Positions 10,022 to 49,615 of a stretch of DNA of 64,000 bases are shown in pieces. Numbering within the stretch: the stretch's first letter is position 1; each line of letters opens with the position of its first letter. Source of the DNA: Escherichia coli (lineage in GTDB: Bacteria; Pseudomonadota; Gammaproteobacteria; Enterobacterales; Enterobacteriaceae); assembly GCF_009931435.1 (NCBI RefSeq), contig NZ_CP043414.1. One strand, given 5' to 3'. Made by a program: the position numbers and the translations under genes. The notes below the pieces were generated by a model, which saw nothing but the letters and a program-made list of their open reading frames with translations, had not been told where the DNA came from and did no database searches.

Positions 10022-11005
10022 ATGGAAGGTAAGTTAATTTTTTGTTCCGATGCAATACTACGGTTTCAGTCCGATTACGATGAAACCGCTGCCGTTCCAT
10101 TGCTATCCATCCAGAACGTCATAGCCGATACCGATCCGTTCTTTCTTCTCCGTTTCTTCCACCATACCGTTCTGATTGAAGAAGGAACAACGCTGGCAAG
10201 TATCTTTCTGGCAATAGAACCGTGGAAGGCTTTGTTAGCGGCTTATCTGGACAGAGATGTTGGTGCTTATATAGATGAGGTAAGAAAACCGTCCGGGCCA
10301 ACGACATGGGATATTGAATGGATTGGGATTGATCGTCGTAGCATGGTTTACCGCGCTTATAAACGTCAGGAGATGCAGGATGGAGAGGATTTTTCTGACT
10401 ATTTAAACCGGGAACGCGTTCTGACCGATGAATTTGAAATTGAAAGTGGCTGTGAGGCTTCTGGCTACATTAAAGGTGATAAAGAACGCTGGAGCATCAG
10501 TGGTGATGTTCACGAGATAAAGAATCTGCCTGTAATCCTCTATAGCAAACAGACATTGATGACTTCACCGAAAGACGGTTTGCTGAAGAAAAACGTATCG
10601 GGTGTGAAGAGTTCCAAGCACAGTTGCTTCGTTTATGGCGATACCTCGTTTTCATTGAGAGAGGTTATGGAAGCCATCTACATTAGCGGGCTGTTCTTCT
10701 ATGCGCCAAGAGACGCCGCCAGTAGTCTTGATGCGCTGAAAGCGAGTGTGGCTGGACTGGAAGACGAACTGACCGAGGTGCCTGAAACAGAATCGGATAA
10801 TAATGAAACAGATGAAGAACCTACCATCGTCGTAGCCGACGGTGCTTTTGATTCGCTCGCTGCTCACATGGAGTCTGAAAAAGCGGAGTGGCAATACATT
10901 AAGAAGTTGTGCCAGCAAGATAGCGAGCTGCCCATACGTATTGGTAGTATCAGAATAGCTGAGCCTGCGGAGCTATGTATTGGCGGGAAAATCTTACATG
11001 AATAG
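10022..11005 (+). CDS. Hypothetical protein (327 aa) with acidic C-terminal region; higher GC than neighbours
   Basis: Very strong RBS (AGGAGGAGGA) upstream of ATG 10022. Confidence 0.6.
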   Translation: MEGKLIFCSDAILRFQSDYDETAAVPLLSIQNVIADTDPFFLLRFFHHTVLIEEGTTLASIFLAIEPWKALLAAYLDRDVGAYIDEVRKPSGPTTWDIEWIGIDRRSMVYRAYKRQEMQDGEDFSDYLNRERVLTDEFEIESGCEASGYIKGDKERWSISGDVHEIKNLPVILYSKQTLMTSPKDGLLKKNVSGVKSSKHSCFVYGDTSFSLREVMEAIYISGLFFYAPRDAASSLDALKASVAGLEDELTEVPETESDNNETDEEPTIVVADGAFDSLAAHMESEKAEWQYIKKLCQQDSELPIRIGSIRIAEPAELCIGGKILHE

Positions 11006-11171
11006 GTACAGGCAACAGTTAGCATTGTGGTGAAAGGATATGGTGTATGTTTGCTCACTTTTTTGTGTTATCTCCTGATCAACCCTATGTCGACTATGGT
11101 AAAATTCCCAACTTTAACACCAACGTAGCAAGTGTTTTATGAGCGCGTAGTCAACCAGTAAGGACATTGAA

Positions 11172-12089
11172 TTGAACATTAACGCAACACCAGTATTAAT
11201 TACACTTGTCTACGAAGCGCTTTTAAGATCCTTTTGGCGTAAACCCGCACTCAAAAAATTTTTGTTATCGTCGCATATTTCTGAAAGCTTCATTTCAACT
11301 TGGAGAGAAGATGAATCAAAAAGAAATTTTTTAGATCGTTTGTTCCCTAAATTACAAAGTAGTGCAAAAGGAAAAAATGTTATCTGCCATATGGCAGTTA
11401 ATCTTTCTGAACAGACTTCTTTTCCTGATTTAAAAGGCTGGGAAGATTCTCTACAAATGATTCAATCTGCAACTGATGCCATAAAAGATTTAAAAAACTA
11501 TATAACAAAACAAAATGAAGAACATCAGACTGAAAAAGAAAAACAAGAGTTCAGAGCACGAGCAGAAAAAGAGAGAACTGAAATAAAACGCTCTGAGACG
11601 GATTTGATGAAATTAAAGAATGAATTTGAGTGTTTGCATAATGAAATAGGAACTCAAAATGGTGGCTACGCATTTGAAAAGTGGTTTTTTAAACTTGTAG
11701 ACTACTGTGAAATTGTCTGTAAAAAACCATATAAAACTAATGGTAGGCAAGTAGATGGAGCCATAACTATTGAAGGCACTACGTACCTTGTTGAATTAAA
11801 ATTTCAGAAAACACAGGCTGACGCCATCGACATCGACTCATTAAAAGCTAAAGTGAGTAAAATGGCTGATAACACGATGGCTGTAATGATTTCTGTATCA
11901 GGTTATTCCTCTGTTGCCATAACTGAATCATCGGGTAGTCGAACCCCTTTATTATTATTAGATTATAGCCATTTATATTTATTCTTGAGTGGTGGAATGA
12001 GATTTGATGAAATAATTACACGGATAAGACGCCATTCTTCACAAACAGGAGAATCTTACCTATCTGTAAATTCATTTGGTGGATTTTAA
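11172..12089 (+). CDS. Putative nuclease: N-terminal domain plus coiled coil plus C-terminal Mrr-like PD-(D/E)xK restriction-endonuclease fold
   Basis: C-terminal GYAFEKWFF...RQVDGAITIEGTTYLVELKFQK fits the Mrr G-x-x-FE / D / E-x-K pattern; apparent TTG start at 11172 with AGGA 7 nt upstream. Confidence 0.55.
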   Translation: MNINATPVLITLVYEALLRSFWRKPALKKFLLSSHISESFISTWREDESKRNFLDRLFPKLQSSAKGKNVICHMAVNLSEQTSFPDLKGWEDSLQMIQSATDAIKDLKNYITKQNEEHQTEKEKQEFRARAEKERTEIKRSETDLMKLKNEFECLHNEIGTQNGGYAFEKWFFKLVDYCEIVCKKPYKTNGRQVDGAITIEGTTYLVELKFQKTQADAIDIDSLKAKVSKMADNTMAVMISVSGYSSVAITESSGSRTPLLLLDYSHLYLFLSGGMRFDEIITRIRRHSSQTGESYLSVNSFGGF

Positions 12090-12149
12090 ATAAACAATAA
12101 TGCTGTATGAAGTAATCTCAGCATTATTGTTTCCAATAATTAATGTTGG

Positions 12150-12527
12150 TTAATCCATCAAGCCGCGTGAAGTCTTACTTGCAGTATGACGAAAATCATA
12201 ACGTTCCACAACATCACCCTTAAACCAGATATCCAGTGATTTAATATGTGCTGTGCTGCTATTGGTCAACAGAGCAAGGCCCGGTATGTAGTTAGATAGC
12301 TGGCTTTCTCCCGTCATACTTGAGTAGTTCCACATCTCCTGTCCATCATTCGTAGCGCGTGTCTGAGGCTCTCCAAAGGCAGCAAGAATTTCTTGTTGGG
12401 TTGTTTTTCCATTGACGATTTTAACTTTAACCGTCTGATGATTTTCATCAGTTAGGGATTTATTACCATGAACGGTACAGCCACTAAGTGGTAATATGAT
12501 AAAAATAGCAAATAACAATTTTTTCAT
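12150..12527 (-). CDS. Lipoprotein, BamE/SmpA-OmlA-like fold (putative)
   Basis: Lipobox MKKLLFAIFIILPLSGC; GKTTQQEILAAFGEPQ resembles the BamE core motif. Confidence 0.55.
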   Translation of the reverse strand: MKKLLFAIFIILPLSGCTVHGNKSLTDENHQTVKVKIVNGKTTQQEILAAFGEPQTRATNDGQEMWNYSSMTGESQLSNYIPGLALLTNSSTAHIKSLDIWFKGDVVERYDFRHTASKTSRGLMD

Positions 12528-12558
12528 TTTAGTTCCATAAATAGATGATAGATGAGAC

Positions 12559-13032
12559 TCAGAAAACATACTTTTTGAATACCAGCATCCATCGCTCGCA
12601 AAGTTCGTGATTTGAAGTGCTTTTATTTTTTAGGGGAACATTAACTTTCCACATGGGATTTTTAATATCATCGGTTAAAATATTGAGGCCAGACCGTTTA
12701 TTCGCTGAAAGTTGTTCTCTCCAGTTAGCAATAGCCGCATTATTCATACCTCGTAATGTTCCATTGCCGTAAAACTTACCACCCTCTGAAAGCGTGTAAT
12801 TTATTTCCCGGATTTCATCAAAAGTATATGTGCTGTCTTTATCTTTATTGAAAATACGGACAGTATGTTTTTGAGTATCAATTACAATACCTGTCTGCTG
12901 GCATTCATAAGAAAGAATGTCGCCGTCCAGAACTTCCGTAAAGCTGTTGTAGTGCTTTTTCTTCTGTATATCTGCTGCGGTCATGATAATGACGAAGAGC
13001 ACCACTAAAAATACGATACCTGTTGCTTCCAC
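12559..13032 (-). CDS. Membrane-anchored hypothetical protein (N-terminal TM helix)
   Basis: GTG start at 13032 preceded by GGAGGAA RBS gives an N-terminus running straight into a hydrophobic helix (IVFLVVLFVIIMTAA); the ORF track's upstream ATG at 13047 lacks an RBS. Confidence 0.5.
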   Translation of the reverse strand: MEATGIVFLVVLFVIIMTAADIQKKKHYNSFTEVLDGDILSYECQQTGIVIDTQKHTVRIFNKDKDSTYTFDEIREINYTLSEGGKFYGNGTLRGMNNAAIANWREQLSANKRSGLNILTDDIKNPMWKVNVPLKNKSTSNHELCERWMLVFKKYVF

Positions 13033-13166
13033 TCTTACTTCCTCCATGTAAATGAGTTAAAGAGACTGAACCCGCTCACAGAGCTTTGCTTCGTTTTATA
13101 CGTGCTACAGCACCAAACTCATGGCGTCGGTCTCGGCGTTGCAAGGCTATCAGAACTTGAAATTAT

Positions 13167-13392
13167 GATCGATATAAAAGATCGATAATTTGTTATTGAT
13201 AGATAATAACGATTGAAAGCGCGATATCGATCGGTGCTTAATTGTTATTATCGATCGAATATCTATTTATGATAGTTGTAAGCTATCGTGCGGTCGTTTT
13301 TGATCGTTTTAAACGATATGACGAGACGCTAAAAGAATTGAATCCTATCAATTGGTTAAGCGGTGGTTTTGCCATGTGATATCAGCCGGATC
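13167..13392. promoter_or_regulatory. Divergent intergenic region with six GATC (Dam) sites and several short palindromes
   Basis: GATC at 13167, 13180, 13229, 13253, 13302 and 13389 within ~225 bp, between divergently oriented envelope-protein genes. Confidence 0.5.
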
Positions 13393-13464
13393 CCGCAACA
13401 ACTCTAGCCCTGACCGGATTAGGTCAAAAATTTAGGCACTTTGATTATCAGGATGGATAAGCAG

Positions 13465-13995
13465 ATGAAGAAGATTTTACTCGTTGCTGGCGCAGCTCTG
13501 GCACTGGCGGGATGTGGTGAGAAAGGTGAGTTTGAGAAAGCGATTAATGCCAAGATTGGGCAAGACAAATACTGCTTCTCGCTGGATAACAATAACACCA
13601 GCTTCCCTATCCGTCTTGCCAAGCCACTACTTGATTCGACTGGCACAGGGACGAATTCAGTGATCCTCGATGGTTTTATTGAGCAGGGCCTGATGGTTTT
13701 TGAGCAGGGTTATGATTCGAATGTATTAGGGATAACAGAGGAAGGCAAAAAAGCCAAAGTCTGGAGCACAACAGACGGTGCCTGTGTTGGTCGTCGTGCT
13801 GTTGACGATATTAAGGAATGGACTGAGCCGGGCAACGGTAATCAGAAAGTCGTTCGCGTGTCTTATACGTGGAAGCTGGTTGACGTTCCGGGCTGGATTG
13901 ACAAAAAAGCGTTCGCCAACGTCAAAGGAATGAATGAACCTGCTGATGGTGCAATAAATCTCGTTAAAACCAGTAATGGCTGGAGAGCTAACTAA
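13465..13995 (+). CDS. Lipoprotein, hypothetical (176 aa)
   Basis: Signal/lipobox MKKILLVAGAALALAGC. Confidence 0.6.
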   Translation: MKKILLVAGAALALAGCGEKGEFEKAINAKIGQDKYCFSLDNNNTSFPIRLAKPLLDSTGTGTNSVILDGFIEQGLMVFEQGYDSNVLGITEEGKKAKVWSTTDGACVGRRAVDDIKEWTEPGNGNQKVVRVSYTWKLVDVPGWIDKKAFANVKGMNEPADGAINLVKTSNGWRAN

Positions 13996-14087
13996 AAGGA
14001 TGCTGGATCGTTAAATGCCCCTGCTACGCTGTGGAAAGTGACAGAAGGGGCATGAATTGTATTTCATTTAATGTAGTGAATGATATT

Positions 14088-14663
14088 TTATTGTATCGAT
14101 TTGTTAGATACTTTCATCAATTTCTCTTGAATTTTTCTTATTCTTTCAAGTTCTTCAACAATGGGATTTTTCTCGCCTTCACTTTGCATGAAAGGGCTTA
14201 AGTCTATATTGTTTTTTTCAACAACTTCTTTATTCATATAACTGTACGTTGCGGTTATTGTAAATTGTTGTGGTAACGGATTTTTCGATTCTCCAAAAAT
14301 AACCCAACCTTGACCAAGGGCGAAGAATAACTCTTGATTGGGCGCTAAGCTATCAATAGTCGATGTAAAAATACTTGTTTCTTTTAGGTTTTTAGTTGGC
14401 TCATCGAACTGATAAAAATCCTTATCTAATTCTAATTTTACATTCAGGGCTGGTGTCTTACCGCTATTATAAATTTTCAGGTATAGGAATTGCGAGTGAG
14501 GTCTTACCATTGGCTGGATTATTATATAAGGACGAGACATTGCCTCGGTTTGCTCATTCATTATCTGAGCTGTTCGTTCGCTTATTCTCGACATCTTGTA
14601 TGTCAAAAATGCATAAATTCCTGTAATGATAACAAGAATTGCTGTAAGTATTTCCATTGTCAT
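14088..14663 (-). CDS. Single-pass membrane protein, hypothetical (191 aa)
   Basis: AGGAG RBS 6 nt upstream of ATG; N-terminal TM helix ILTAILVIITGIYAFLTY. Confidence 0.6.
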   Translation of the reverse strand: MTMEILTAILVIITGIYAFLTYKMSRISERTAQIMNEQTEAMSRPYIIIQPMVRPHSQFLYLKIYNSGKTPALNVKLELDKDFYQFDEPTKNLKETSIFTSTIDSLAPNQELFFALGQGWVIFGESKNPLPQQFTITATYSYMNKEVVEKNNIDLSPFMQSEGEKNPIVEELERIRKIQEKLMKVSNKSIQ

Positions 14664-14709
14664 GATTAACTCCTAAGTATAATGATTCATACCAGTAAGG
14701 TATAATATT

Positions 14710-15204
14710 TTAACTATTATTGCATTTTTTTCTGTTGAATAGTTGATTATATCCAAGTTCCATTTCTTCAATAAAATCTTCATTAAATGTTGGAAATCCA
14801 CACGCCAGTGGTTCTTTCCCTCGAATTTTGAATAAGTTATAAAGATAACTACTTTCTTTATATGCGACATGAATGGCAGGATATGGCCTATTTTTTATAA
14901 TCTTATTGTTTAGTTCCTTATCATTGATAATGTTATATTGATCCCCCGTTATATCAACTACAATATTATCTATCTCAAGCCAGTAATGGGTTATTTGACT
15001 ATTTTTTCCGGTAGTTGCGCTAACTCCTTTTAGCTCACATTCAGGCCATAGGGTCAGAAAATGGTAAGAAAGAAGCATTGAGGTAAGCTTACAACTCATA
15101 ACAGGAAAACAGTCTATAACAAGACTGGTGTTCTTTTTATCACAACTTTCAATTAATCTACGAAGCTTAACTGCTTCTTCTTTTATTTCGATAATGGTTG
15201 GCAA
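14710..15204 (-). CDS. Hypothetical cytoplasmic protein (164 aa), TTG start
   Basis: AGGGAG RBS 6 nt upstream of TTG 15204; no family recognised; contains one R-x5-H (RPYPAIH), a weak HEPN-like hint only. Confidence 0.5.
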   Translation of the reverse strand: MPTIIEIKEEAVKLRRLIESCDKKNTSLVIDCFPVMSCKLTSMLLSYHFLTLWPECELKGVSATTGKNSQITHYWLEIDNIVVDITGDQYNIINDKELNNKIIKNRPYPAIHVAYKESSYLYNLFKIRGKEPLACGFPTFNEDFIEEMELGYNQLFNRKKCNNS

Positions 15205-15282
15205 GATCAGCTCCCTAACTACATGATGTGCCGAGCATTTAATATATACGATACATAGGTCATTAAAAAGTATGTTCTAAAT

Positions 15283-16764
15283 TTAGTGTTTCTTATGGCT
15301 CGGTGGACTCAGTTTTGGCGCGCTTCCTTGCCTCATGTGTTCTGGTGGCATTGAAGGTGTGAGATTTATGCTTCTATTAACTTCCGGCTGTTCCTGATTA
15401 GGACGGCTTGGTAAACGTTTGATTTCATCAGGTGTTAATTTATAGTCACCATTGTTAAATTTGGTACGTTTTTCAAACTCCGAGCGTGGAACATTGACAC
15501 CCAGCACTTCATCATAGACATAGTTCTCTGCGATACGCTTATCATGGTCAGCATCAATGGTATCGGGTTTCCTTCTGGCCCATACAAATCTCTCTTTGAA
15601 GAAGCCCACCACAAGCAGTGTGAAACGCTTAAACAAACCATTTTGTCGTGGCTTAGTCTGTTTCCTACTTCTCATCGGAGCACGGTTTATCGCTCTGGTG
15701 TTTCGAGAAGAAGGGGTTTCCAGTTTAGTGGATGCAGTTGGTTCAGGAACAATCAGAACGGGAGATTTCTTCCCTGAAATACTTACTTTACTGACCTTAT
15801 TAGGATTACGGTATGATTTTGCTGCTGGTCTTCTGCTTGTAGTTGCTGTTGCCACAATCGGCTGTTGTTCTACTGTTACCGGGTCGTCTGGAAGAACAAT
15901 CTCTTCGGGGTCAGGAAGAATTGTTATCTCAAAGCTTCTGACATCAACAACGATCTCCAGTGGTAGCTCACTGAATGTGGTGTAGACCTTCTTGGCCTCT
16001 TCAATTTGATGATCGCGTTGAGCTTGTTCAACAGATCGCTGTTCCTGAGACTCTTTGTCATTCCATTTAGCACGATGAACACGTTGCATTGCCGGGCGGT
16101 TAGTTTCCGTTGCTTTGGCAAGCCAGAACGCTTTTTCTTCAGCGCTGAATGCTTCTTCTGCCTGAGCAAGGGCATCAGCACATTGAGTTCTGAGAGAACG
16201 GTGATCGATACGTTCTTCACTGCCTGCAGTCTCAAGGTAGCTGTTTGACATCGTGGCCCATGACTCACGCCACTGAACAACCATCTTCTTATCATTCCAG
16301 CTTCTGTCTTTTTTACCGAAGCCTTCGGGACCGATAGTTTTCAGGGTTAACATGACGTGAGCATGGGGATTCTTACCATCTAAATCGTGGAATGCGATAT
16401 CAGCAATCATTCCTTTATCAGCAAAGTTCTTCTGGCAGTATTCGGCAACTAATTTTTTCTTGTCATCATTGCTGAGTTCTACGGGAATAGCGACATCAAA
16501 ATAACGGGCTGTTTGACCATTGTTCTGGCGTTCCACTCTTTCAACTTCATTCCAGAGTGCTGACGAGCTTTCAACAATATGAGCAGGTGCGGAAACAGGG
16601 GCTAATATAATATGACCATGAAGATCTGTTCTGTGGCTGAAATCAAATGTCTCGCCAATGCGATCATCTTTAATACGTGTACGGGCATGGTAGGCAGCTT
16701 TCGCAACAGAAGTCATGCCTTCGCTTCGTTTCACAATTTTAAAATCCAGATGAAAAATCGCCAT
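15283..16764 (-). CDS. mobA: MobA/MobL-family (MOBQ) conjugative relaxase
   Basis: N-terminus MAIFHLDFKIVKRS...AKAAYHAR with candidate catalytic Tyr; three-His motif HDLDGKNPHAHVML (H-x-D-x4-N-x-H-x-H). Confidence 0.85.
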   Translation of the reverse strand: MAIFHLDFKIVKRSEGMTSVAKAAYHARTRIKDDRIGETFDFSHRTDLHGHIILAPVSAPAHIVESSSALWNEVERVERQNNGQTARYFDVAIPVELSNDDKKKLVAEYCQKNFADKGMIADIAFHDLDGKNPHAHVMLTLKTIGPEGFGKKDRSWNDKKMVVQWRESWATMSNSYLETAGSEERIDHRSLRTQCADALAQAEEAFSAEEKAFWLAKATETNRPAMQRVHRAKWNDKESQEQRSVEQAQRDHQIEEAKKVYTTFSELPLEIVVDVRSFEITILPDPEEIVLPDDPVTVEQQPIVATATTSRRPAAKSYRNPNKVSKVSISGKKSPVLIVPEPTASTKLETPSSRNTRAINRAPMRSRKQTKPRQNGLFKRFTLLVVGFFKERFVWARRKPDTIDADHDKRIAENYVYDEVLGVNVPRSEFEKRTKFNNGDYKLTPDEIKRLPSRPNQEQPEVNRSINLTPSMPPEHMRQGSAPKLSPPSHKKH

Positions 16765-17409
16765 TAAAAATATAACCTCAAATAAAAGTAATGCTGTTAG
16801 TTTTTCGTAAGAAAAACTTCGGGGTTGACGTTGACCTTGGTTTTACTTTTAGCCTGCGGCAGCAACCGTCGGTAGACCCCACACACTGCGTAGCAGTGTA
16901 TAGGTGGGCATTGTCTTTAAGAAAATAAGCCAATGTAAAATGCCCCTCTTATTAATTAATACGAAATATATGTATGGTTGTAAAATAATACGCCGGAATA
17001 AGCGGCGCAAACTGGATTAAAGGTGTAGGTTTCACGTCCACAGAACAAAAAGAGTAAAGAAAAGGCCCGTAAGGGCAAAAGAAATATTAATTATTCCCGC
17101 CGTAAGGCGGGATAGCTAAATTTGATGGAAAAAAACCAATAAAACAGAGAGTGTTATGTGTTGCACAATTCACAGGTTGAGATTGGAAAATAGAGTTTAA
17201 AATTGACAGGTGAAAATAAAAGCACAAATGCGCAAAAATAAGTAACGCGGAGAGTGCCAGATGTTTTTGGTTAGTGAATACTATCATATGCGTTGCACAT
17301 ATTTATAAAGAAATGTATCAGAATCATTCTCTCTGACAAAACAGACTAAATTTGACGTTATTTATCTTTGTGATAATTAAAATAAGATATAATAATAGAA
17401 GGAGGTAGT
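16765..17409. other. Candidate oriT region between divergent relaxase and mobC-like genes
   Basis: Hairpin acactgc-gta-gcagtgt at 16883-16899; two GTAA(G)-loop hairpins (gccc-gtaa-gggc, cccgcc-gtaa-ggcggg) at 17064-17108; geometry mirrors RSF1010 mobC-oriT-mobA. Confidence 0.4.
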
Positions 17410-17715
17410 ATGGATAATGAAAGTAAAAGACCAAGAACAGAAAAAACATTAAAGCAAAAGGTTGCTTTTGCTCAGCTTGAACTTAATCGTCTTAAGTCTC
17501 TGGAAAAATCAGAGCGAAAGAAAGTTGAAACAAGACTCAAGATTATACTTGGTGCGGAAGTGGCTAAGGCTATGAATTGTAGTGTCGAACAGGTGGATAA
17601 AGAGCTTGTTATGGGGATTTTGCTTTCAGCATCTGACCTGAATGATATTGAAAAAATAACATATATAAAAGCAGGCAGTAAGTTTCTCGCGCAAATGGAG
17701 GGAAGACAAAAATAA
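17410..17715 (+). CDS. MobC-like relaxase accessory protein (putative)
   Basis: 101-aa charged coiled-coil protein transcribed divergently from the relaxase; assignment is by position and size only. Confidence 0.35.
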   Translation: MDNESKRPRTEKTLKQKVAFAQLELNRLKSLEKSERKKVETRLKIILGAEVAKAMNCSVEQVDKELVMGILLSASDLNDIEKITYIKAGSKFLAQMEGRQK

Positions 17716-17976
17716 TAATATTTAAATTTATTTTGATTCAGGTATTGATATCTGATTATTATCTGTTATCTATATAAAAGAACAGAACGCAGGATCATCC
17801 TTTATTAATATTTTTTCCTTTTCAATCATGCGTTCTGTTCGACCAGTAATCTGTTAATTTTTATCTTTATGTAGTGAACGTTATTATTACTTTTTTATCA
17901 GATATGATAAATATCCCATGAGGAAGTAATAATAACAGTAGTAGTGATAACAAATGTTGTTTTTAAATCTCCCGGA

Positions 17977-18002
17977 AGGCAAAGAGAAATCTTTGCCTTT
18001 TT
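17977..18002 (+). terminator. Rho-independent terminator (ggcaaaga-gaaa-tctttgcc + TTTTTT)
   Basis: Perfect 8-bp stem, tetraloop and U-tract, about 110 bp upstream of pilS. Confidence 0.6.
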
Positions 18003-18112
18003 TAATTCATCCGTCTGTCAGATAGAATTAAATATATCTTTCTATTTCTATTGCCAGATATGAGAGAAGCGTTATAACAGGAGTTATCATTAAAACAAAA
18101 AAGGAGATGATA

Positions 18113-18670
18113 ATGGTTTTATTAAATAACAAAAGAAAAGGCAAGAAAGGTTTCTCACTACTCGAGCTATTACTTGTTTTAGGCATCATTGCTGCATTAG
18201 TGGTAGCGGCTTTTATCGTTTATCCCAAGGTTCAGGCTTCACAAAGAGCACAGGCCGAATCCAATAACATTGCCACCATACAGGCAGGTGTTAAAGCGTT
18301 ATACACATCGGCTTCAAGTTTTACTGGCCTGACAAATACTGTGGCTGTTCAGGCAAAAATCTTCCCTGACAATATGTTAAGTGGGTCAGGAACGGCTGCT
18401 AAACCCATCAATGCCTTTAAAGGTAATGTGACGCTGGCTGCTACAGCTACAGGACCATCATCAGCGGCTGGCTCTTCTTTCACTATCACATACGATAATG
18501 TGCCAGCAGCGGAATGTGTGAAGATTGCGACAGCGGCAGCAGGTAATTTCTACATTACCACGGTTGGAACCAAGGTTGTTAAAGCCGCAAGAGGAACACT
18601 TGATGTGGCAGCTACGGCAGCGGCCTGTAATAACGCCACAAGTAATACATTAGTTTTCACGTCTATCTAA
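18113..18670 (+). CDS. pilS: Type IV prepilin, PilS-like major pilin (type IVb, IncI-thin-pilus-like)
   Basis: Long basic leader then G-FSLLELLLVLGIIA (prepilin peptidase motif with Glu+5); AAGGAG RBS 6 nt upstream of ATG 18113. Confidence 0.75.
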   Translation: MVLLNNKRKGKKGFSLLELLLVLGIIAALVVAAFIVYPKVQASQRAQAESNNIATIQAGVKALYTSASSFTGLTNTVAVQAKIFPDNMLSGSGTAAKPINAFKGNVTLAATATGPSSAAGSSFTITYDNVPAAECVKIATAAAGNFYITTVGTKVVKAARGTLDVAATAAACNNATSNTLVFTSI

Positions 18671-18722
18671 TGAAGAGGGCGCAGGCCCTTTTCTTTCTTA
18701 TTGCTAAAACAGGGAGATAATT

Positions 18723-20186
18723 ATGATAAAGAATAAAGGATTTACCTTACTGGAAGTCAGTATTGTGTTAGGCATTGGAACACTTATCGCTTTTATGAAG
18801 TTTCAGGATATGAGAAACAATCAGGAAGCGGTATTGGCTGATAATGTTGGAACACAGATTAAACAGCTTGGCGAAGCTGTTAACCGCTATATCAGTATTC
18901 GCTATGACAAGATTTCCACACTGTCATCATCCAACAATCAAAGTAGCGATCCGGGGCCAAGAACATGTTCGGCTGCTGGTTGTGAAATCACTTACCAGAC
19001 GTTAATTAATGAAGGTCTGTTGCCTGTCGGCTATACAGGAACTAACGCGCAAAAAGCATCTTACAAGATTGTGTTAAAGCGTTCAGGAACAGCGCCTGAT
19101 TACGTTATTAATGGTCTTATAACAACCGCTAGCCCGTGGGAAGAAGGTGGTCGTATTCGTTATGATCTATTAGGTAAAGCGGTTCAGGCGGCAGGTGTTG
19201 ATGGTGGTATGAGCAGAAACACCAAGATAGCTTCCGGCTATGGTGGTCAGTGGAGTGAGAACTCTAATAGCTACAGCAATATCACGGGTGGTGGATTGCT
19301 GGCTTACCGCGTGGGGTATAACTCTTCAATGTATTCTGTTTATCTGCGTCGTGATGGAACGTTGCCAATGACGGGTGATCTGAATCTTGGTGGGAAGAGC
19401 ATCAAAAACATCAAAGATATGACAGCATCAGGGACAACAACAACCGGAGCACTTAAGACAACGGGTAATGCGTCTGTTGCGTCAGATCTGAGTGTGGGTG
19501 GAACCTCGACCCTTAATGGTCCTGTAAATATCAACAACAACCTGAAAGTAAAATTTGATACCTATCTTAATACGCTATCAACAACAGGTCTGGCGAAGTT
19601 TGGTAGCCGTATTGCGACGAACGGACTTAATCCAAACGATCTGCCCGCTGGCTGGGCTGGCGGTGTTCGCACCTATGATTTGTATGCGTCGGGGACTGTT
19701 GGTGTTGGAACCGGTAAAACAGTTAAAGCTTACATGAACAATGCGGGTAATATTTATGCGTCAGGTAATCTTACCGCCGGGACGATAAAATCCAACGGAA
19801 CAATTGAATCAACAGGCAGAATCAAAGCAGGTGAATATCTCCACCTGAATGGTCAGGCAACGTTGAATGCGAAATGTACGCCTAATGGTTTGGTGGGACG
19901 AGACAGTACAGGTCGAGTGTTATCGTGTGTTAACGGTAAATGGCAGACAGCAAGTGGTGATGGCCTGAAAGGTATTTTTATAACGATAACAGATCAAATC
20001 TCTGGTTATAAATGCGTTATACCGAATAGTGATACTGGAACATGTGCCTGTCCGGGATCAACGTATAGTCCTCAGTTTGGTTATATATCTGGAACCCTTA
20101 TTGCAGAATATAATGAGGAGCGTTGTAGTGGTGGTAGGAATACACATTGTTATAGTAATTTCAGAAGGTTATATGCATGTCGGTAA
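18723..20186 (+). CDS. pilV: Type IV prepilin-like minor pilin/adhesin, PilV-like (487 aa)
   Basis: N-terminus MIKNKG-FTLLEVSIVLGIG (prepilin motif) followed by a large G/T/S-rich, Cys-containing domain. Confidence 0.7.
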   Translation: MIKNKGFTLLEVSIVLGIGTLIAFMKFQDMRNNQEAVLADNVGTQIKQLGEAVNRYISIRYDKISTLSSSNNQSSDPGPRTCSAAGCEITYQTLINEGLLPVGYTGTNAQKASYKIVLKRSGTAPDYVINGLITTASPWEEGGRIRYDLLGKAVQAAGVDGGMSRNTKIASGYGGQWSENSNSYSNITGGGLLAYRVGYNSSMYSVYLRRDGTLPMTGDLNLGGKSIKNIKDMTASGTTTTGALKTTGNASVASDLSVGGTSTLNGPVNINNNLKVKFDTYLNTLSTTGLAKFGSRIATNGLNPNDLPAGWAGGVRTYDLYASGTVGVGTGKTVKAYMNNAGNIYASGNLTAGTIKSNGTIESTGRIKAGEYLHLNGQATLNAKCTPNGLVGRDSTGRVLSCVNGKWQTASGDGLKGIFITITDQISGYKCVIPNSDTGTCACPGSTYSPQFGYISGTLIAEYNEERCSGGRNTHCYSNFRRLYACR

Positions 20187-20221
20187 TCTCGCTATGGATG
20201 ATTTCATAAATTACAGGTAAG

Positions 20222-20239
20222 AAGGGCCGATAGGCCCTT
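20222..20239. terminator. Hairpin between convergent pilV and Lamassu-like operon (aagggcc-gata-ggccctt)
   Basis: Perfect inverted repeat in the 60-bp convergent gap. Confidence 0.45.
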
Positions 20240-20246
20240 TCAGCTA

Positions 20247-21998
20247 TTATGAGGTTTGTAATAAAGAGAAGGCGTCATCCAATAGAATTTTCTCGCTATT
20301 GTTTATCTCTTTATTTAATAGAAATGATCTCACTGATTTTGCATTACCGATACAAATTTGTTTCGCTTTTCCTGCGAAATATTTCTTATTTATTTCATTG
20401 ATATCAAAAAGTGGATTGTCATTAATTTCGTTTTTTTTATATTCTGCTACGGTAAATAGCATTTGCTCATTATTACCAGATTCATTTCCTAAGAACTTAA
20501 AAATAAGATCTCTATTTCCAATATCTATATCTTCTTTGAATATAGCATCTAACAAAAATGGAAATTTATGGATTGTTTTTCTTTTATTGATTAATTTAAT
20601 AAAGGAAAAATGATAAGCCATGATTATTTTATGTAATTCAACCCCTTGGAAGGGGAAGGATGTAATGGAATAAAGATTTTGATACCTTGGATTATTAGGT
20701 ATTATTATCTTCAAAGCTTTTGCTTTTTCGCTGAAAATAGTTAAAAATTCCTTGTCAATGTTGTTTCGGAGAGAGTTAATTTGTGAATCTGTGAGTAGGT
20801 TGTCAATTTGGGTGTTAAGGTTTGATATTTTTTCGACATAATTAGCTTCTTTAATTTTAATATCATTTAAAATGGTGATATTTGCACGGTGATTAACCCA
20901 ATGGTCAAAGTCAATATTTTCGATTCTCGATTCTTTTAACACCTCATACTCAAGCTTTATTTTTTCACTATCGTGTTTGATCTTTCTTTCAACAGAATTT
21001 AATGATGACGAAACATTTTTAATTTCTTCAGTTATACGTTCTTTTTCTCGTAACGCATCGTTAATATCTTGAGTATAGATATATAATTGTCTAAGATCGC
21101 CGGGTAGCGTTTGTTCGCATACAGGACATGTGTCAACGCTGGGTTTTTGAAGTTTTAAATTTCGAATAGTTTGTAAAAGTACTTTTTGACGCCCACGTAA
21201 CATACTGAGTTTATTGCATAGTTTTTCATAATTAGCTTCTTCCGTAATCAGATTTTCTGCTAATATGTTGTATTTTTTTAAGTAATCAATTGCTTCCCCT
21301 TTGAATCGAGACTCTAATATCTCAGAGATTTTAAGAGAGCTATCTTTTGTTTTGTATTGAATTAATTGCTCTCTTTCATATTCAATTTGTTGTTTTTCTT
21401 TTTGCAACATATATTTTTGCAATCTGTCCGTACGATCTTTTATGCCTGCGTAGTAATCAAGGTAGTCATATTTGAAGTCTTTATAAAATCTATAATCACC
21501 TATTGATTCTCTTAGATAAACCCAACCAACAGATTGAGATATATAGAATGGCAAGAATGCAGCTTCTATCGGTGCATCAGTAAACTTAGTTTGGTTCTGT
21601 AATGTTAGATTAAAGTCAAATAAGTGGTTAAATAATTTTTTGTATCTTGCATATTCATATGAGTTATTTCCATTAATGCCATCAAACCGTAGGGGGACTC
21701 TATCATCAATGCGAACGACGAGAGTATCATCAAATCGAACAAATACAACCGTATGAGATGATTTTACTTTTATTATTTCACACTCAAGACGAAAGAGTAC
21801 TCTTTCTGTAAGAATGTCGTGCAAATTTTCTTTGGAATCATTAACACCCATTGTGTACAAAATTGATTGCATTAATGTACTTTTCCCTGATGTGTTCCTC
21901 CCGTGAATAATATTGACTGAGTCACCAAAATCAGTGCAAAAAAAACCTTTATTATTCATAGAGTATGCTAAAATGCTTTTCAGAATTAATTTAGACAT
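20247..21998 (-). CDS. SMC/Rad50-like ABC ATPase with coiled coil and CxxC hook (Lamassu LmuB-like)
   Basis: Walker A GRNTSGKST near N-terminus; long heptad-rich middle; CPVCEQ in mid-protein; start ATG 21998 with GAGGAA RBS overlaps upstream stop (ATGTCTAA). Confidence 0.65.
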   Translation of the reverse strand: MSKLILKSILAYSMNNKGFFCTDFGDSVNIIHGRNTSGKSTLMQSILYTMGVNDSKENLHDILTERVLFRLECEIIKVKSSHTVVFVRFDDTLVVRIDDRVPLRFDGINGNNSYEYARYKKLFNHLFDFNLTLQNQTKFTDAPIEAAFLPFYISQSVGWVYLRESIGDYRFYKDFKYDYLDYYAGIKDRTDRLQKYMLQKEKQQIEYEREQLIQYKTKDSSLKISEILESRFKGEAIDYLKKYNILAENLITEEANYEKLCNKLSMLRGRQKVLLQTIRNLKLQKPSVDTCPVCEQTLPGDLRQLYIYTQDINDALREKERITEEIKNVSSSLNSVERKIKHDSEKIKLEYEVLKESRIENIDFDHWVNHRANITILNDIKIKEANYVEKISNLNTQIDNLLTDSQINSLRNNIDKEFLTIFSEKAKALKIIIPNNPRYQNLYSITSFPFQGVELHKIIMAYHFSFIKLINKRKTIHKFPFLLDAIFKEDIDIGNRDLIFKFLGNESGNNEQMLFTVAEYKKNEINDNPLFDINEINKKYFAGKAKQICIGNAKSVRSFLLNKEINNSEKILLDDAFSLLQTS

Positions 21999-23079
21999 AC
22001 ATTCCTCTTGTCTCAACATATGCAGCTATTATCGCAAATGCAATCATGTGTTTTTCTAACCTTGAATTATATGTGTTAATATAAGTTTGATATAATTCAG
22101 TAATACAATCTGCTTCATCTGTATGTTTATAATCTATTTGTGTGTTTTCTGATACAAATTTATAAATCTTTTTGTATTCTACTTGTTGAAAATCTTTAAA
22201 AAAATCGAAACAGTTATCTAATAATTCTTGCGCTCTTCTTTTTATAGGGAGCTTAATTGATAATCCTTTCGCCAATTTATCTGCATGAGAACGCCAAAAG
22301 TTGAAAGCTTTTTTACTTTCTTGGAACATACTGAATGTTGCATCAATTTTTTGTTTGGTCAAACGCTTTGACCTATCTGTAAGTAAAGCATATCCAGCAT
22401 TATTATATGTTAACTCAACATCTTGCAATAAAGCCATTAGAGTTGTTATTACAGCGTCATGATCACTAACCTTACAACCTAGAACCTCAGTAGATAAACC
22501 TGTTAGCGTTCTTCTCCACCCTTTATAAGTTTGAGGAAGGTCAATGAAACTAAATTTTACATTAGAGAGTTGCTTAAAATCTGCAATTTCTCCATCTATT
22601 AGTTTTGATTGAATGTTTTCTTTGATTTCATCATGTAGATCAGAATAATTTTTAGAGATGTTTGTTACTTGTATTTTTTCTACTTTGCATTTTTTACCTT
22701 TTTCTTTCTTACCCTGAAGTATAATATTTCGATTTGTCAAGAAAGATAGAGTGTGTTTGTAATCATCAGATTTGGGGTGTTTATCGTTGATAAGTTCATT
22801 TCCAACAAGCGATATTTTTCCGATGATCTCACAAAATTTTTGATCCGTTTTCCAGTCATCTCTTGATTTTTTAGCTTGATAAGTATCAATGCGACTAATG
22901 TCACCATTTTCATCAACAAAGGCAAAAAGAAAATCTTCATGGTGTTCAACACATATAAAATAATCTAGCAATGGAGAGTTTAGTTTTTCGTAATCATCAA
23001 AAAGAAGGTATACAACACAACAACGTTGGAATGTATATCCTGAGCCTCCCTCAACTCCTGAGTTGACGCTTTCTGACAT
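21991..23079 (-). CDS. Mrr-like PD-(D/E)xK nuclease-domain protein (Lamassu LmuA-like effector, putative)
   Basis: N-terminal GYTFQ ... VEHHEDFLFAFVDENGD ... IDTYQAKK fits the Mrr-type G-x-x-FE / D / (Q/E)-x-K pattern; translationally coupled to the downstream ATPase. Confidence 0.5.
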   Translation of the reverse strand: MSESVNSGVEGGSGYTFQRCCVVYLLFDDYEKLNSPLLDYFICVEHHEDFLFAFVDENGDISRIDTYQAKKSRDDWKTDQKFCEIIGKISLVGNELINDKHPKSDDYKHTLSFLTNRNIILQGKKEKGKKCKVEKIQVTNISKNYSDLHDEIKENIQSKLIDGEIADFKQLSNVKFSFIDLPQTYKGWRRTLTGLSTEVLGCKVSDHDAVITTLMALLQDVELTYNNAGYALLTDRSKRLTKQKIDATFSMFQESKKAFNFWRSHADKLAKGLSIKLPIKRRAQELLDNCFDFFKDFQQVEYKKIYKFVSENTQIDYKHTDEADCITELYQTYINTYNSRLEKHMIAFAIIAAYVETRGMYV

Positions 23080-23348
23080 TTTTTGTTGCCCCTGTTAATC
23101 AAATCATAGCGTAAATCTATTAATACATATTTAACATTGGCTTTATGTATGAAATACGCATTCTCCTTAGCTAAAGGATATTATAAAGTGGACTAAAAAT
23201 CATCTAACACCTTGCAAAATGTGAAGTTTTTCTTCATGTAAAACTCATAAATAACGTTACTATTCTGTTAGTAACGAAATAATCGGGAAACTTGCTATTT
23301 ACGGTTTACAGGAATCTTAATCAAAGTTGTGTAAAAGTTTAATCTTAC

Positions 23349-23606
23349 TTATTGAGCAAATTCAAACTGCCTGACCATCCCATCCCGGTTAGCATCAAGA
23401 AAATCTGCCCACCACTGTAGCATTAACCTTCGCTGCTCAAGATGCTTGGCCTTATGGGTATAGGCAGCACGAACACTGTTGCTTTCCTTGTGGATCATCT
23501 GGAGTTCCACCGCATCTTCAGACCATAGCCCTGATTTAATCAGAGCACTACATGCCAGTGTGCGGAAACCATGACCAGAGATGTCCTGTGTGGTGTCATA
23601 GCCCAT
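23349..23606 (-). pseudogene. C-terminal remnant of a second P4-type tyrosine integrase
   Basis: 85-aa ORF aligns with the last ~80 residues of the adjacent intact integrase (…RxxYxHK…LxxRRxMLQWW…) but is divergent from it and lacks everything upstream. Confidence 0.6.
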
Positions 23607-23624
23607 TTATGCATTCTCTTGTTA

Positions 23625-24854
23625 TCAAGCAGCCATAGCCCTATACTTTTGCGCCTTAACGTAATCTCCCCACCATTGCATAAGCACTTCTCGCTCCCCT
23701 AAATATTCAGCTCGATTGTAGGCTGCTATGATTTCAGTGCTTTTGGTATGGGCCAATGCTGCTTCAAGAACTTCTGTTCTGAATTTGCCACTCTCTTCGG
23801 CGGCTGTTCTGGCAATAGAACGCATACCATGAGCTACCAGTTCACCACCCAACCCCATACGAATCAATGCGGCGTTGGCTGTCTGCTCATGCATGTGGGC
23901 CAATGGTGTTTTTATGCTGGGAAATACCCATTCACGATGACCGCTGATAGGCTGCATGTTTTCCAGAATGCGAAGTGCCTCTTTGCTTAATGGCACTTTA
24001 TGAGGCCGTTTCATCTTCATAAACTCTGGTGGGATGTTCCAGATTTTATTCTCTGTATCGATGTCAGCCCAACGAGCACGAACAGCCTCACCGGGGCGAA
24101 CCCATGTCAGCAGTTGCCATTCAATCAGCATACGGGTTTCCAGACGGATGGATGCGTTTGCCAGTGCAATCATAAACCGGGGGATTTCGCTTGGTGGTAA
24201 TGCTGGCATATTTTGTTTTTTGGGCTTACTGAAACGTTGACCAAGGTTGTCGGCTGGGTTGAACTCAATGAGTTCTTCTGTGGCAGCATAGCGAAAAATT
24301 TCATTCAGGCGGGAAATGATGCGACGTAGAGTTTCAAGCACACCCCGTTGTTCAATTGGGTCGAGATGCTGCTTGAGCATTTTGGGGCGGATCTCTTTGA
24401 TAGGGACATCACCCAGAGTGGGAAAGATGTTCCGTTCAAGGCTACGCCAGATGTCTTCTGCATGATCTTGGGATATACCGGAAGTCTTAATCTTTTCATC
24501 CAACCACTTTCTTGCAACAGCCTGTAGCGTGTTTTCAGTCGCATCTTTTAGTGCATTGGCTTTTTCGTTGTTATGGACTTGAGGATCGATACCGTTGGCA
24601 AGTAGGGAGAGATACTCATCCCGCAAAGTTCGTGCCTTAGCCAAGGTAAGGTGAGGGTAGGTTCCAAGACTCATTTTTGTGCGTTTTTTGGTCACTGGCA
24701 CTGAATACCTGAAATACCAGTTTTTCTTCCCTCCTTTTGTGTCTGGCGCTATGCGTAGCAGTAATCCATCTCCATCAAAGAGGTTGATTTCCTTATCGCC
24801 GGGTTTGGTATTTTTGATTTCAGTATCAGTAAGTTTTTTTGCGAGCTTTGCCAT
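23625..24854 (-). CDS. intA: P4-type tyrosine integrase (IntA-like) adjacent to ssrA
   Basis: 409 aa; C-terminal catalytic region ...VAHGMRSIARTA...ALAHT...AAYNRAEY; sits directly downstream of the tmRNA 3' end as in CP4-57. Confidence 0.9.
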   Translation of the reverse strand: MAKLAKKLTDTEIKNTKPGDKEINLFDGDGLLLRIAPDTKGGKKNWYFRYSVPVTKKRTKMSLGTYPHLTLAKARTLRDEYLSLLANGIDPQVHNNEKANALKDATENTLQAVARKWLDEKIKTSGISQDHAEDIWRSLERNIFPTLGDVPIKEIRPKMLKQHLDPIEQRGVLETLRRIISRLNEIFRYAATEELIEFNPADNLGQRFSKPKKQNMPALPPSEIPRFMIALANASIRLETRMLIEWQLLTWVRPGEAVRARWADIDTENKIWNIPPEFMKMKRPHKVPLSKEALRILENMQPISGHREWVFPSIKTPLAHMHEQTANAALIRMGLGGELVAHGMRSIARTAAEESGKFRTEVLEAALAHTKSTEIIAAYNRAEYLGEREVLMQWWGDYVKAQKYRAMAA

Positions 24855-25018
24855 TTGGGACCCTCAAGTTTTGGACCCTTTCCGTTGGGTCCCAAAAAGG
24901 GTGCCATAAGTTGTGGTTCTCAGCAATTCTCCCTGAACTATAGTGAACGTAAAAAAGCCCGCAGAGCTTGTGCTGTGCGGGCTTAGTGAACTTCACTGAA
25001 CGTTAGTGTATCAATATT

Positions 25019-25381
25019 TGGTGGAGCTGGCGGGAGTTGAACCCGCGTCCGAAATTCCTACATCCTCGGTACTACATGCTTAGTCAGTCTTTACATTCGC
25101 TTGCCAGCTGCGGACGGACACGCCACTAACAAACTAGCCTGATTAAGTTTTAACGCTTCAACCCCAGGCAGGGCTTCCACGCGATCTCTTTTGGGTTTGA
25201 CCTCTCTTGATCCCCGTCCTAAGAGCGGAGGCTAGGGAGAGAGGGCTCTAAGCAGGTTATTAAGCTGCTAAAGCGTAGTTTTCGTCGTTTGCGACTATTT
25301 TTTGCGGCTTTTTACGAGGCCAACCGCCCCTCGGCATGCACCTTGGGTTTCGCAAATCCCGTCGAATCCAGAATCAGCCCC
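25019..25381 (-). ncRNA. ssrA: tmRNA (SsrA), 363 nt
   Basis: Reverse complement reads GGGGCUGAUUCUGGAUUCGACGGG ... GCAAACGACGAAAACUACGCUUUAGCAGCUUAA (tag reading frame) ... GGUUCAACUCCCGCCAGCUCCACCA. Confidence 0.97.
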
Positions 25382-25595
25382 AATGTGTAACGGTAAGTAT
25401 ACCAGATTCATGAGTGCCATGACCAGCCTCAATGGCGTTATCGTTAAAGATTTAGCACCCGTGTAGCCTGATTTTTATTCGATTAAGCAATGGGATGGCA
25501 ACATTTGGGTCGGATGTGATAGCCAATAAGATGTTCATTCGCGCCGCCGGAGAGGGTGGCGCGGTGAGGAACCGGTCAATAATTGGAGTGCAGAT

Positions 25596-45880: not shown

Positions 45881-46126
45881 GTGATGGGCAAAGAATATAA
45901 AACTCTCATTAACAAAGCACTTGAGCGTTTTTATTTTCGCTTAAGTGCATCAGGCGCTCATGCTGAACGTGCAGCCCGTGACTCATTGACCAGGGCAATC
46001 CGGAGTTTGTATGACGTCGCTTTTTACGCTGATGATCTGGATGCACTTAACGAACTTTCCGAGCTGATCTGTGCCGCAGAATGCGGGGAACATATTGAAC
46101 CGTATAAGCTGGGGAATATCGCATGA
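45881..46126 (+). CDS. Hypothetical phage protein (about 80 aa)
   Basis: Early-operon ORF. Confidence 0.45.
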   Translation: MMGKEYKTLINKALERFYFRLSASGAHAERAARDSLTRAIRSLYDVAFYADDLDALNELSELICAAECGEHIEPYKLGNIA

Positions 46127-46329
46127 GTATATTTATCTCATGGCTTGTTCTGATTATTTCGGTGGCCTGCGCCATTGGAATTATGCGAATTATTCATTCA
46201 GTAAAAAAGATTGAACGTTTTTTCACTGGTGAATAACGATACAAATAAAACATCAAATTAAATAAGAAAACGTGAAAACCATCCGTATTAACGGAGGTAT
46301 TCGCACACGCAAATAACGGAGATACAAAA

Positions 46330-46740
46330 ATGCACGCAAAAGAAGAAGGTATCATCAGAGCACTGAAAGAAATTTCAAAGACAGAAAACGAAGTAGCGAA
46401 AAAAGCCATAGCAAATAATCATATGGACGTCGCAACCCACACACTGATAGTCGCAAGAGTCACGGCAGAAGCAGCCGAAATTATCGCAAAACAGGATGCT
46501 GAACTGGCGGTTCTCAGAACACAACCAGTCACCGGACTGGATTTGTCTAACACCGGACGCCTTATTTACACAATTGGCTCGGAGCTACAGCGATACACCA
46601 TTATCGCCGGGTTACAGGATAAATACCTGATCACTCCTCACCCCATAAGGGAATCAGAAATTCTGACAAATCTCCGCCTGATAGAGCGCTCTCAAGTCGC
46701 ATTCATTGATGACGCACAGTGCACCGTATTTAACGCATAG
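46330..46740 (+). CDS. Hypothetical phage protein (136 aa)
   Basis: Early-operon ORF. Confidence 0.5.
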   Translation: MHAKEEGIIRALKEISKTENEVAKKAIANNHMDVATHTLIVARVTAEAAEIIAKQDAELAVLRTQPVTGLDLSNTGRLIYTIGSELQRYTIIAGLQDKYLITPHPIRESEILTNLRLIERSQVAFIDDAQCTVFNA

Positions 46741-46763
46741 AGTTACTGGACAAAGGGGGCGCA

Positions 46764-47526: not shown

Positions 47527-47537
47527 AGGACCGCGAT

Positions 47538-48571: not shown

Positions 48572-48577
48572 TTAAAC

Positions 48578-48623
48578 CCGGCCAGTGAAAATCGCTGGCC
48601 GGAGCAGTATCAGGATTTTTTTT
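48578..48623 (+). terminator. Hairpin (ccggccag-N9-ctggccgg) with distal T8 tract after the SPFH gene
   Basis: 8-bp perfect stem; U-tract starts 13 nt after the stem so terminator function is uncertain. Confidence 0.4.
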
Positions 48624-49609: not shown

Positions 49610-49615
49610 ATCACT

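Follow-up and report, generated by a model that had tools for sequence, protein, structure and literature searches.

The region at 15283-17715 of the Escherichia coli DNA analysed here, a 64,000-nt stretch of the chromosome that we call the window, is probably the DNA-processing (Dtr) module of an integrative mobilizable island inserted in the tmRNA gene ssrA. It comprises a gene for a MOBQ relaxase, a transfer origin (oriT) and a divergent small gene of the TraD family. The island is of the type known as Enterobacteriaceae-associated ROD21-like genomic islands (EARL), whose prototype is ROD21 of Salmonella Enteritidis (PMC6035254, PMC3976249). The module is a real and intact mobilization module of this published family, here as a variant relocated to ssrA. 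To a large extent, then, the finding is already explained. What we add is a base-level prediction of the nick site (nic), whose core appears to have been re-specified, and a conserved structured leader beside it. Roughly one complete E. coli chromosome in seven holds an island of this family, as do many other Enterobacterales, and the islands carry defence systems and virulence genes. A prediction of nic, strand and order of entry makes the statement that they are probably mobilizable open to simple experiments.

The relaxase gene (15283-16764, minus strand) encodes 493 amino acids (aa), of which residues 1-209 are the catalytic domain. Over its whole length the protein scores 249.7 bits against the NCBIfam MobQ model NF041496, above the curated cut-off of 200. 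Residues 19-208 match Pfam MobA_MobL (PF03389, E 6.5e-54), the sole domain matched, and the Pfam search gave no primase domain. N-terminal parts of Ti-type TraA models also match in profile searches. The earlier reading of this DNA from its letters (the sequence-only reading) had reported a catalytic tyrosine and an exact three-histidine motif, and both are there: the catalytic residues are Tyr25 and H126, H134 and H136, and HDLDGKNPHAHVML matches exactly at residues 126-139. The three histidines are invariant across 11 relatives and fit the metal-binding pattern HxDx(n)HxH. Among solved structures the best match is NES, a nicking enzyme of staphylococci (4ht4, E 4e-25), followed by MobA of R1162/RSF1010 (2ns6, E 1e-9). 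Tyr25 pairs with NES residue 25 (Phe in the 4ht4 mutant) and with Tyr25 of MobA, and the three histidines align as well. The closest plasmid relaxases, at about 45% identity, belong to small enterobacterial MOBQ plasmids of the pEC958B type, and the relaxase domain is 97% identical to an S. Enteritidis protein. By these comparisons the relaxase is closer to NES and to the small enterobacterial MOBQ plasmids than to RSF1010 MobA.

The length of the protein is normal for its clade, most of 38 homologues having 464-505 aa. Shorter open reading frames (ORFs) occur among the 38: four of 307-380 aa and a fifth, in locus L043, of 198 aa. Ratios of non-synonymous to synonymous substitution rates (dN/dS) of 0.05-0.16 were obtained for the catalytic domain and of 0.13-0.35 for the C-terminal half, which has conserved patches at about residues 375-455 and a basic P-K/R-L-R-P-P tail. 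The relaxase is under purifying selection. Because it is also full length against its homologues, it does not have the look of a truncated or inactive protein.

Between the relaxase gene and the divergent gene lie 645 bp (16765-17409) that hold no conserved ORF, in agreement with the earlier description of this region as non-coding. We compared it across 80 loci with relatives of the relaxase, 40 of the island clade (57-96% identical) and 40 distant (36-48%; Firmicutes, cyanobacteria and others). Three systems with canonical origins served as references: Ti traA, nes of staphylococci and pEC958B, an E. coli plasmid of 4 kb. The classic MOBQ origin is present in all three and in 27 of the 40 distant loci (37-48% identical). 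It lies 48-600 nt upstream of the relaxase gene (mostly 50-300 nt), on the strand antisense to that gene, and takes the form of an inverted repeat followed by a core of the GTATAAGTGCG^CCCTT type, where ^ marks the cut; CCGCACACATCG-GTA-CGATGTATAAGTGCG^CCCTT is an example. The plus strand of the window at 16878-16913 aligns with it column for column, as CCCACACACTGC-GTA-GCAGTGTATAGGTGGG^CATTG. Alignment to MOBQ origins, which had been suggested as a check on the sequence-only reading, does therefore yield a nic homologue, but not at the hairpins with GTAA loops.

The nic hairpin (16878-16908, plus strand) has an outer stem CCCAC/GTGGG, an inner stem ACACTGC/GCAGTGT, a GTA loop and a 3' bulge ATAG. 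It stands 144 nt upstream of the relaxase start and its sequence occurs once in the window. The cleavage sites of NES and RSF1010 have been mapped, and because of homology with them we predict cleavage of the plus strand between G16908 and C16909 (GTATAGGTGGG^CATTG, against the canonical GTATAAGTGCG^CCCTT). The same layout is present in 39 of the 40 island-clade loci, which is every one with enough upstream sequence. A locus from Izhakiella, whose relaxase is 57% identical, has an intermediate core, ATAAGTGGGCATTG.

In an alignment of 23 sequences, 94.4% of the cells of the two-part hairpin are paired and 42 cells are altered on both sides. None of 500 shuffles matched its covariation score, and slid controls fall to 21-52% pairing. 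The outer stem, which takes in the bases immediately 5' of the predicted cut, shows a compensatory shift from the canonical CGCAC/GTGCG to CCCAC/GTGGG; at pair 6-36, 11 sequences have CG and 11 have GC. The inner stems vary by island subtype and stay complementary (ACACTGC/GCAGTGT, ACGCTCAC/GTGAGTGT, ACACTC/GAGTGT, ACATTGC/GCAATGT). Stem covariation and the Izhakiella intermediate support the assignment of this hairpin as the putative nic hairpin. Positions 16790-16960 are about 90-100% conserved over 39 loci from more than 20 Enterobacterales genera, and in the same comparisons the synonymous sites of the adjacent relaxase gene are saturated (dS 1.1-3.0). The origin is conserved across genera far above neutral expectation.

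Two nic candidates chosen by eye, TGCGCC (minus strand, 17003-17008) and TGCCCC (plus strand, 16941-16946), which are inverted copies, were set aside because the canonical hairpin of distant relatives aligns with 16878-16908 instead. A sigma-70 promoter over nic (TTTACA-18-GACAAT, 16939-16910) was also discarded, its spacing not being kept in relatives.

The divergent gene (17410-17715, plus strand), separated from the relaxase gene by the origin, encodes 101 aa behind a strong AGGAGG ribosome-binding site. The sequence-only reading had placed a coiled-coil gene here and called it MobC-like. The gene is confirmed, but the family is a different one: the sole Pfam match is to TraD of the Ti-plasmid type (PF06412, E 1.5e-10), with no match to MobC in Pfam and none to any NCBIfam model. 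An E. coli homologue has been named 'conjugal transfer protein TraD' by the NCBI Prokaryotic Genome Annotation Pipeline (PGAP), and the protein aligns with a 71-aa Agrobacterium plasmid TraD through the motif TR.KI.LG..V.KA. AlphaFold2 predicts an all-helical protein of three helices, the first 40 residues long (pLDDT 81). In 35 of the 40 family loci traD is divergent from the relaxase gene. No ORF lies between the origin and traD, and pilS is the next gene after it. A promoter-like site upstream of traD (TTGTGA-17-AATAAT, 17368-17396, plus strand) is a consensus match only, and conservation there is low. TraD is presumably a relaxosome accessory factor or an autoregulator. For Ti plasmids, the part of PMC4700958 that cites Cho and Winans 2007 has TraA, TraC and TraD acting at an oriT between divergent operons.

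A course of events can be suggested from these parts. The integrase and the AlpA-like factor of the island would excise it. The relaxase would bind the extruded hairpin 16878-16908 on the plus strand and, with Tyr25 and a metal held by H126, H134 and H136, would cut between G16908 and C16909, remaining attached to the 5' end at C16909. The divergently encoded TraD-family protein may aid assembly or regulation of the relaxosome. A co-resident conjugative plasmid or integrative and conjugative element (ICE) would supply a coupling protein and a type IV secretion system (T4SS), through which the relaxase-DNA complex would be exported. The plus strand would enter the recipient 5' to 3', first the conserved leader of roughly 400 nt, then traD, pilS, pilV, Lamassu and int, with the relaxase gene last. 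Finally, the relaxase would rejoin the strand at the regenerated nic.

The published EARL gene set consists of a MobA/MobL relaxase and TraD, a type IV pilin and a pilus protein, a P4-like integrase with a recombination directionality factor (RDF), and variable cargo (PMC6035254). The island in the window matches this set: the relaxase gene and traD diverge, a pilin is encoded together with a PilV-like protein, the genes for a tyrosine integrase and an RDF stand at opposite ends, the cargo is variable, and T4SS genes are absent. Its backbone is 91-95% identical over about 12 kb to that of an E. coli island (6276-7109, 7178-10966 and 12150-19943). It differs in several ways. It sits in ssrA and not in an Asn-tRNA gene. 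Its integrase is not the conserved P4-like one of the family (about 32% identity to that of the sister E. coli island), and its cargo is Lamassu. DUF6387/SEN1998 (843 bp, beside the RDF) and an H-NS homologue, each present in many though not all members, appear to be absent: there is no ORF of 90 aa or more in 5417-6401, and the H-NS-bearing segments of the sister island L001 have no counterpart in the window.

The island has its own integration and excision genes, a relaxase and an oriT, and is without genes for a coupling protein or mating-pair formation, as expected of an integrative mobilizable element (IME). The earlier statement that no coupling protein or T4SS genes are present holds for all 64 kb of the window, which is accounted for by the island ORFs, core genes to the right and a P2-like prophage. 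Because relaxase and origin are present and mating machinery is not, the island would be an IME in need of a helper. The authors who described EARL already propose that the relaxase recognizes a cognate oriT and recruits a helper T4SS (PMC6035254). The sequence-only reading came to much the same view; sequence evidence and that proposal favour it, whereas the one relevant experiment does not.

That experiment concerns ROD21, which excises and transfers (PMC3976249). Its transfer was unchanged after deletion of the relaxase SEN1980, was very rare (1.1e-8) between S. Typhimurium strains carrying pSLT, and was lost when donor and recipient were both without this F-like virulence plasmid (PMC3976249). 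The deletion result argues against a need for the relaxase; it is the only direct evidence, and it is negative. Because the family's only experiment found the deletion without effect, we can but infer what the module does. Transfer at such a frequency may be like that of Hfr (high frequency of recombination) donors or may go through co-integration, so the module was perhaps not probed.

Other points stand on the same side. Nicking or mobilization has been demonstrated experimentally for no member of the family. The nic core departs from the canonical one at five of the nine positions around the cut, and the exact bond is extrapolated from other relaxases. TraD has no recognizable DNA-binding fold, and its predicted structure gave no significant match in the PDB. 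At the far end of the island the attachment site is just a 10-nt repeat, with no copy of the ssrA 3' end at the junction. Lastly, no helper can be named, and the island PilV is just 25-28% identical to IncI PilV. For the pilin, 48% identity was found to those encoded by plasmids of about 40 kb from the Klebsiella group and Citrobacter. Attempts to identify a helper through PilV and PilS, or through the origin and leader, were abandoned: the two proteins are too distant from those of IncI plasmids and no real plasmid backbone matched.

How did the unusual core arise? One may tentatively suggest that the ROD21-like clade re-specified the near-universal MOBQ nic, from GTGCG^CCCTT to GTGGG^CATTG with a matched change in the opposite arm, and so acquired a private pair of relaxase and origin insulated from co-resident MOBQ plasmids. 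As part of the same suggestion, the leader hairpins may be signals for priming on single-stranded DNA or for establishment in the recipient. In any event, the altered core is a naturally occurring example in which target recognition by MOBQ relaxases can be studied.

A different possibility is that the main task of relaxase and origin is to maintain the excised island by rolling-circle replication, with the plus-strand hairpins as the single-strand origin from which the lagging strand is made. It is established that relaxases can drive the replication of ICEs (ICEBs1, SXT/R391), a RepL-like replication protein annotated in sister islands suggests an extrachromosomal phase, and the leader hairpins are conserved, strand-asymmetric and at a fixed distance from nic. 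Such a role would also fit the indifference of ROD21 transfer to loss of the relaxase. We nevertheless consider it unlikely as the main function, since transfer systems are where this kind of protein, a TraD partner and a basic C-terminal tail are typically met, and a separate replication gene would make relaxase-driven replication unnecessary. The two roles are not mutually exclusive.

It is more doubtful still that the module is no longer active and is left over from a plasmid or ICE that the chromosome captured. Many database homologues are labelled 'partial', traD is frameshifted in one E. coli copy, and there are the five short relaxase ORFs already mentioned. However, the 'partial' entries come mostly from contig ends, the ORF in the window is intact with its catalytic residues conserved, and the genes of the set stay linked in 35 of the 40 family loci. 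Strong purifying selection on the relaxase, and conservation of the origin across genera far beyond neutral expectation, argue in the same direction.

The least probable, and contradicted by the present analysis, is the RSF1010-style module of the sequence-only reading, with nic at the GTAA(G)-loop hairpins (17065-17111) and a MobC-like accessory gene. The order of relaxase, origin and divergent small gene fits, and the GTAAG string bears a superficial resemblance to the RSF1010 nic, which carries GGTAAGTGCG. But the GTAA hairpins are without a GTGCG/CCCT-type core, and a much better nic homologue is found 156-203 nt on their 5' side. Their loop sequence is variable (GCAA, GAAA, GAA, GTGA), so that GTAAG is not conserved, the small gene is TraD and not MobC, and the relaxase has no primase fusion, matches NES far better than MobA and is also closer to the pEC958B type than to MobA.

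The transfer module of an integrative mobilizable island, which we favour, has relatives among better known systems. In the Dtr region of Ti plasmids (traAFBH / oriT / traCDG), a MOBQ-type relaxase likewise faces a divergent operon with a TraD-family gene (PF06412), oriT lies between them, and the nic strand is antisense to the relaxase gene. In the module of the window, by contrast, TraC and the coupling protein TraG are missing, the relaxase is without a helicase domain, TraD has a 34-residue N-terminal extension, and the core is GTGGG^CATTG where Ti has TTGCG^CCCTT. With NES/oriT of pSK41-pLW1043-type plasmids, and with the pEC958B type, it shares the architecture of the origin: a hairpin whose loop is of the G..A kind, a bulge of the ATAA type, an outer stem that takes in the bases directly 5' of the cut, and a cut 8 nt past the inner stem. 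Unlike theirs, its core is changed, with a compensatory change in the outer stem, and its origin is chromosomal and integrative. To RSF1010/R1162 (mobA-mobB / oriT / mobC) it is linked by the MOBQ superfamily, by Tyr25 and HxH at equivalent places and by general gene order; the relaxases are but weakly similar (E 1e-9), no primase is fused on as in MobA/RepB, and the accessory gene is not mobC. The PIME family, made up of IncP-type IMEs (bioRxiv 10.64898/2026.01.12.698999), has a different gene set and proved to be unrelated. Another preprint of 2026 (bioRxiv 10.64898/2026.01.13.699239), with its oriT_rQ families, defines 'oriT-comprising regions' that precede MOBQ relaxase genes on the chromosomes of E. 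coli and Salmonella.

Three hairpins, two of them with nic-like GTAA(G) loops, had been noted in the non-coding region. Hairpins do exist there, but at least seven of them, and nic lies elsewhere; a GTAA loop occurs in three (16799-16818, 17065-17076 and 17096-17111). The first, which we call H1 (AGTTTTTC-GTAA-GAAAAACT, 16799-16818, plus strand, from a repeat search), lies between nic and the relaxase start, 90-110 nt 5' of nic. Its stem is nearly invariant in the 40 family loci, with one-base changes in L036, L039 and L044, and its loop is GTAA, GCAA, GAAA, GTGA or GTCA. It is followed by repeats of the hexamer GTTGAC (16824-16835, plus strand), two copies in the window and one to three in relatives (L006-L045; three in L030 and L035), which could be a binding site for an accessory protein. 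Directly 5' of the nic hairpin is a mini-hairpin, GTC-GGTA-GAC (16868-16877, plus strand), which reads CCC-GGTA-GGG in L026, L031, L035 and L041, a double compensatory change. All three elements are on the side of nic predicted to transfer last.

Inserted between TTAGCCTGC and the GTTGAC repeats, many relatives have an extra hairpin that the window is without, GTTTCC-GAAG-GAAAC, whose loop may instead be GGAG or CAAG. It is carried by L006-L011, L015-L017, L022, L023, L030, L035, L040 and L041, and related variants, GTTTTCC-AGA-GGAAAAC and GTTTTTC-GTAG-GAAAAC, are seen in L036/L042.

On the other side, an inverted repeat CATTG...CAATG followed by a conserved TAAAA (16909-16935, plus strand) begins at nic+1. 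Its outer five pairs are invariant in 19 sequences and its inner arms covary (CATTGTT/AACAATG, CATTGTCT/AGACAATG, CATTGTTT/AAACAATG). Beyond it, conservation across genera marks out a non-coding leader of about 365 nt (16936-17300, plus strand), predicted to be the first DNA to enter a recipient. On the plus strand it contains a hairpin CGCCG-GAATAAG-CGGCG (16991-17007), hairpin B (GCCC-GTAA-GGGC, 17065-17076), hairpin A (CCCGCC-GTAA-GGCGGG, 17096-17111), a box GTGTTGCACAATTCACAGGTT (17158-17178) and a near-invariant box AAAATAAGTAACGCGGAGAG (17235-17254). The leader is kept wherever the origin is present, even with 1-6 kb of cargo before traD. The two GTAA hairpins of the leader keep a fixed spacing from nic (+147 to +172 and +163 to +204), and the stem of hairpin B covaries between GCCC/GGGC and GTCC/GGAC.

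The loops of the origin and leader hairpins are nearly all G..A on the plus strand (GTAA, GCAA, GAAA, GTGA, GAA, GTA, GGTA); the exceptions are TAC in one nic hairpin (L034) and TGAA in one degenerate hairpin A (L042). G..A loops form unusually stable DNA mini-hairpins. This suggests, without proving it, that the hairpins act on the transferred single strand. One may conjecture that the leader serves in priming of the complementary strand or in establishment, or that it provides binding sites for TraD. Rfam gave no match in 15000-18200, and the leader has no similarity to other plasmid DNA. Two further ideas about it were dropped. A long single-strand promoter hairpin of the Frpo kind finds no long-range fold (z-score -1.6 on the plus strand and -3.0 on the minus strand, the latter from local hairpins only). 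The GTAA hairpins as terminators of a minus-strand small RNA have a T-rich tail in the window that is not conserved in other genera.

Between the leader and traD, 1-6 kb of extra DNA is present in L014-L016, L018, L024, L031, L037, L040, L041 and L044. Because so many relatives carry it there, a cargo insertion point seems to lie between about 17300 and the traD promoter.

The island as a whole is about 19 kb long, roughly 5742-25031 (about 5.7-25.0 kb). Our confidence in this boundary is only moderate because the displaced 3' end of ssrA was not seen. A tyrosine integrase gene (23625-24854, minus strand; NCBIfam PRK09692, 450.8 bits) adjoins ssrA (25019-25381). Near the far end is an AlpA-like gene of 66 aa (6147-6347, plus strand), whose excisionase domain match is weak (E 0.0037) and which is probably the excision directionality factor. 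A 10-nt core from the T-arm of ssrA, GGGAGTTGAA, is found at 25032-25041 and repeated at 5732-5741, and the same core is at the equivalent place in a Prodigiosinella island. In L035 the far-end repeat, at about 16112-16121, reads TTCAACTCC.

The integrase is 31-32% identical to those of the sister E. coli island copies L001 (H1) and L003, but shares 86-90% identity with ssrA-linked integrases from islands of Citrobacter, Hafnia, Kluyvera and Yersinia. In a comparison with L023, L038 and L001, the integrase-ssrA end (23620-25428) has 80-82% DNA identity to the Citrobacter and Hafnia islands. Since the backbone matches the L001 island but the integrase end matches those of Citrobacter and Hafnia, the sequences point to a swap of the integration module.

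After traD come genes for a type IV prepilin (187 aa) and a PilV-like adhesin (487 aa), at 18107-20186 on the plus strand. There are no pilus assembly genes with them in the island, and the two proteins may decorate a pilus made by another element. Between pilV and int lies the cargo, a Lamassu pair on the minus strand (20247-23079) encoding LmuB (590 aa, E 1.8e-224) and LmuA (362 aa, E 2.1e-137).

The module, at 80-95% identity, is present in 803 of 5,426 complete E. coli genomes (about 15%) and is always chromosomal. Exact copies of the relaxase, TraD, integrase and RecN proteins of the window are recorded from Escherichia. Its origin was found in only three of 72,556 plasmid records, two of which resemble chromosomal pieces or megaplasmids. 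The third record is pINF177.2 of K. pneumoniae (L086, CP110748.1, 112286-140426), an IncFIB/IncHI1B plasmid with a whole island beside MPF_G ICE genes. That island contains DUF6387, AlpA, H-NS, a replication protein, MobA/MobL, TraD, a restriction-modification system and an integrase. We regard it as a lead on a helper and not as evidence for one. As a side observation, the record L003 (CP088875.1, 393 kb, E. coli F17EC0245) is typed as a plasmid, yet the chromosomal genes hprR, msrPQ and zinT surround its island copy, and it may be a chromosomal piece or a misassembly.

The rest of the window consists of core chromosome, with nadK, ffh, dgcN, pheA, tyrA and aroF, and of the P2-like prophage. 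Just beyond the far island end is a gene for an autotransporter adhesin of the Ag43/AIDA-I type (1,553 aa, 735-5396, plus strand). The prophage (46000-64000) has a replication endonuclease, terminase, portal and P2-family capsid, and a prophage from a bovine E. coli matches it at 99.3% identity.

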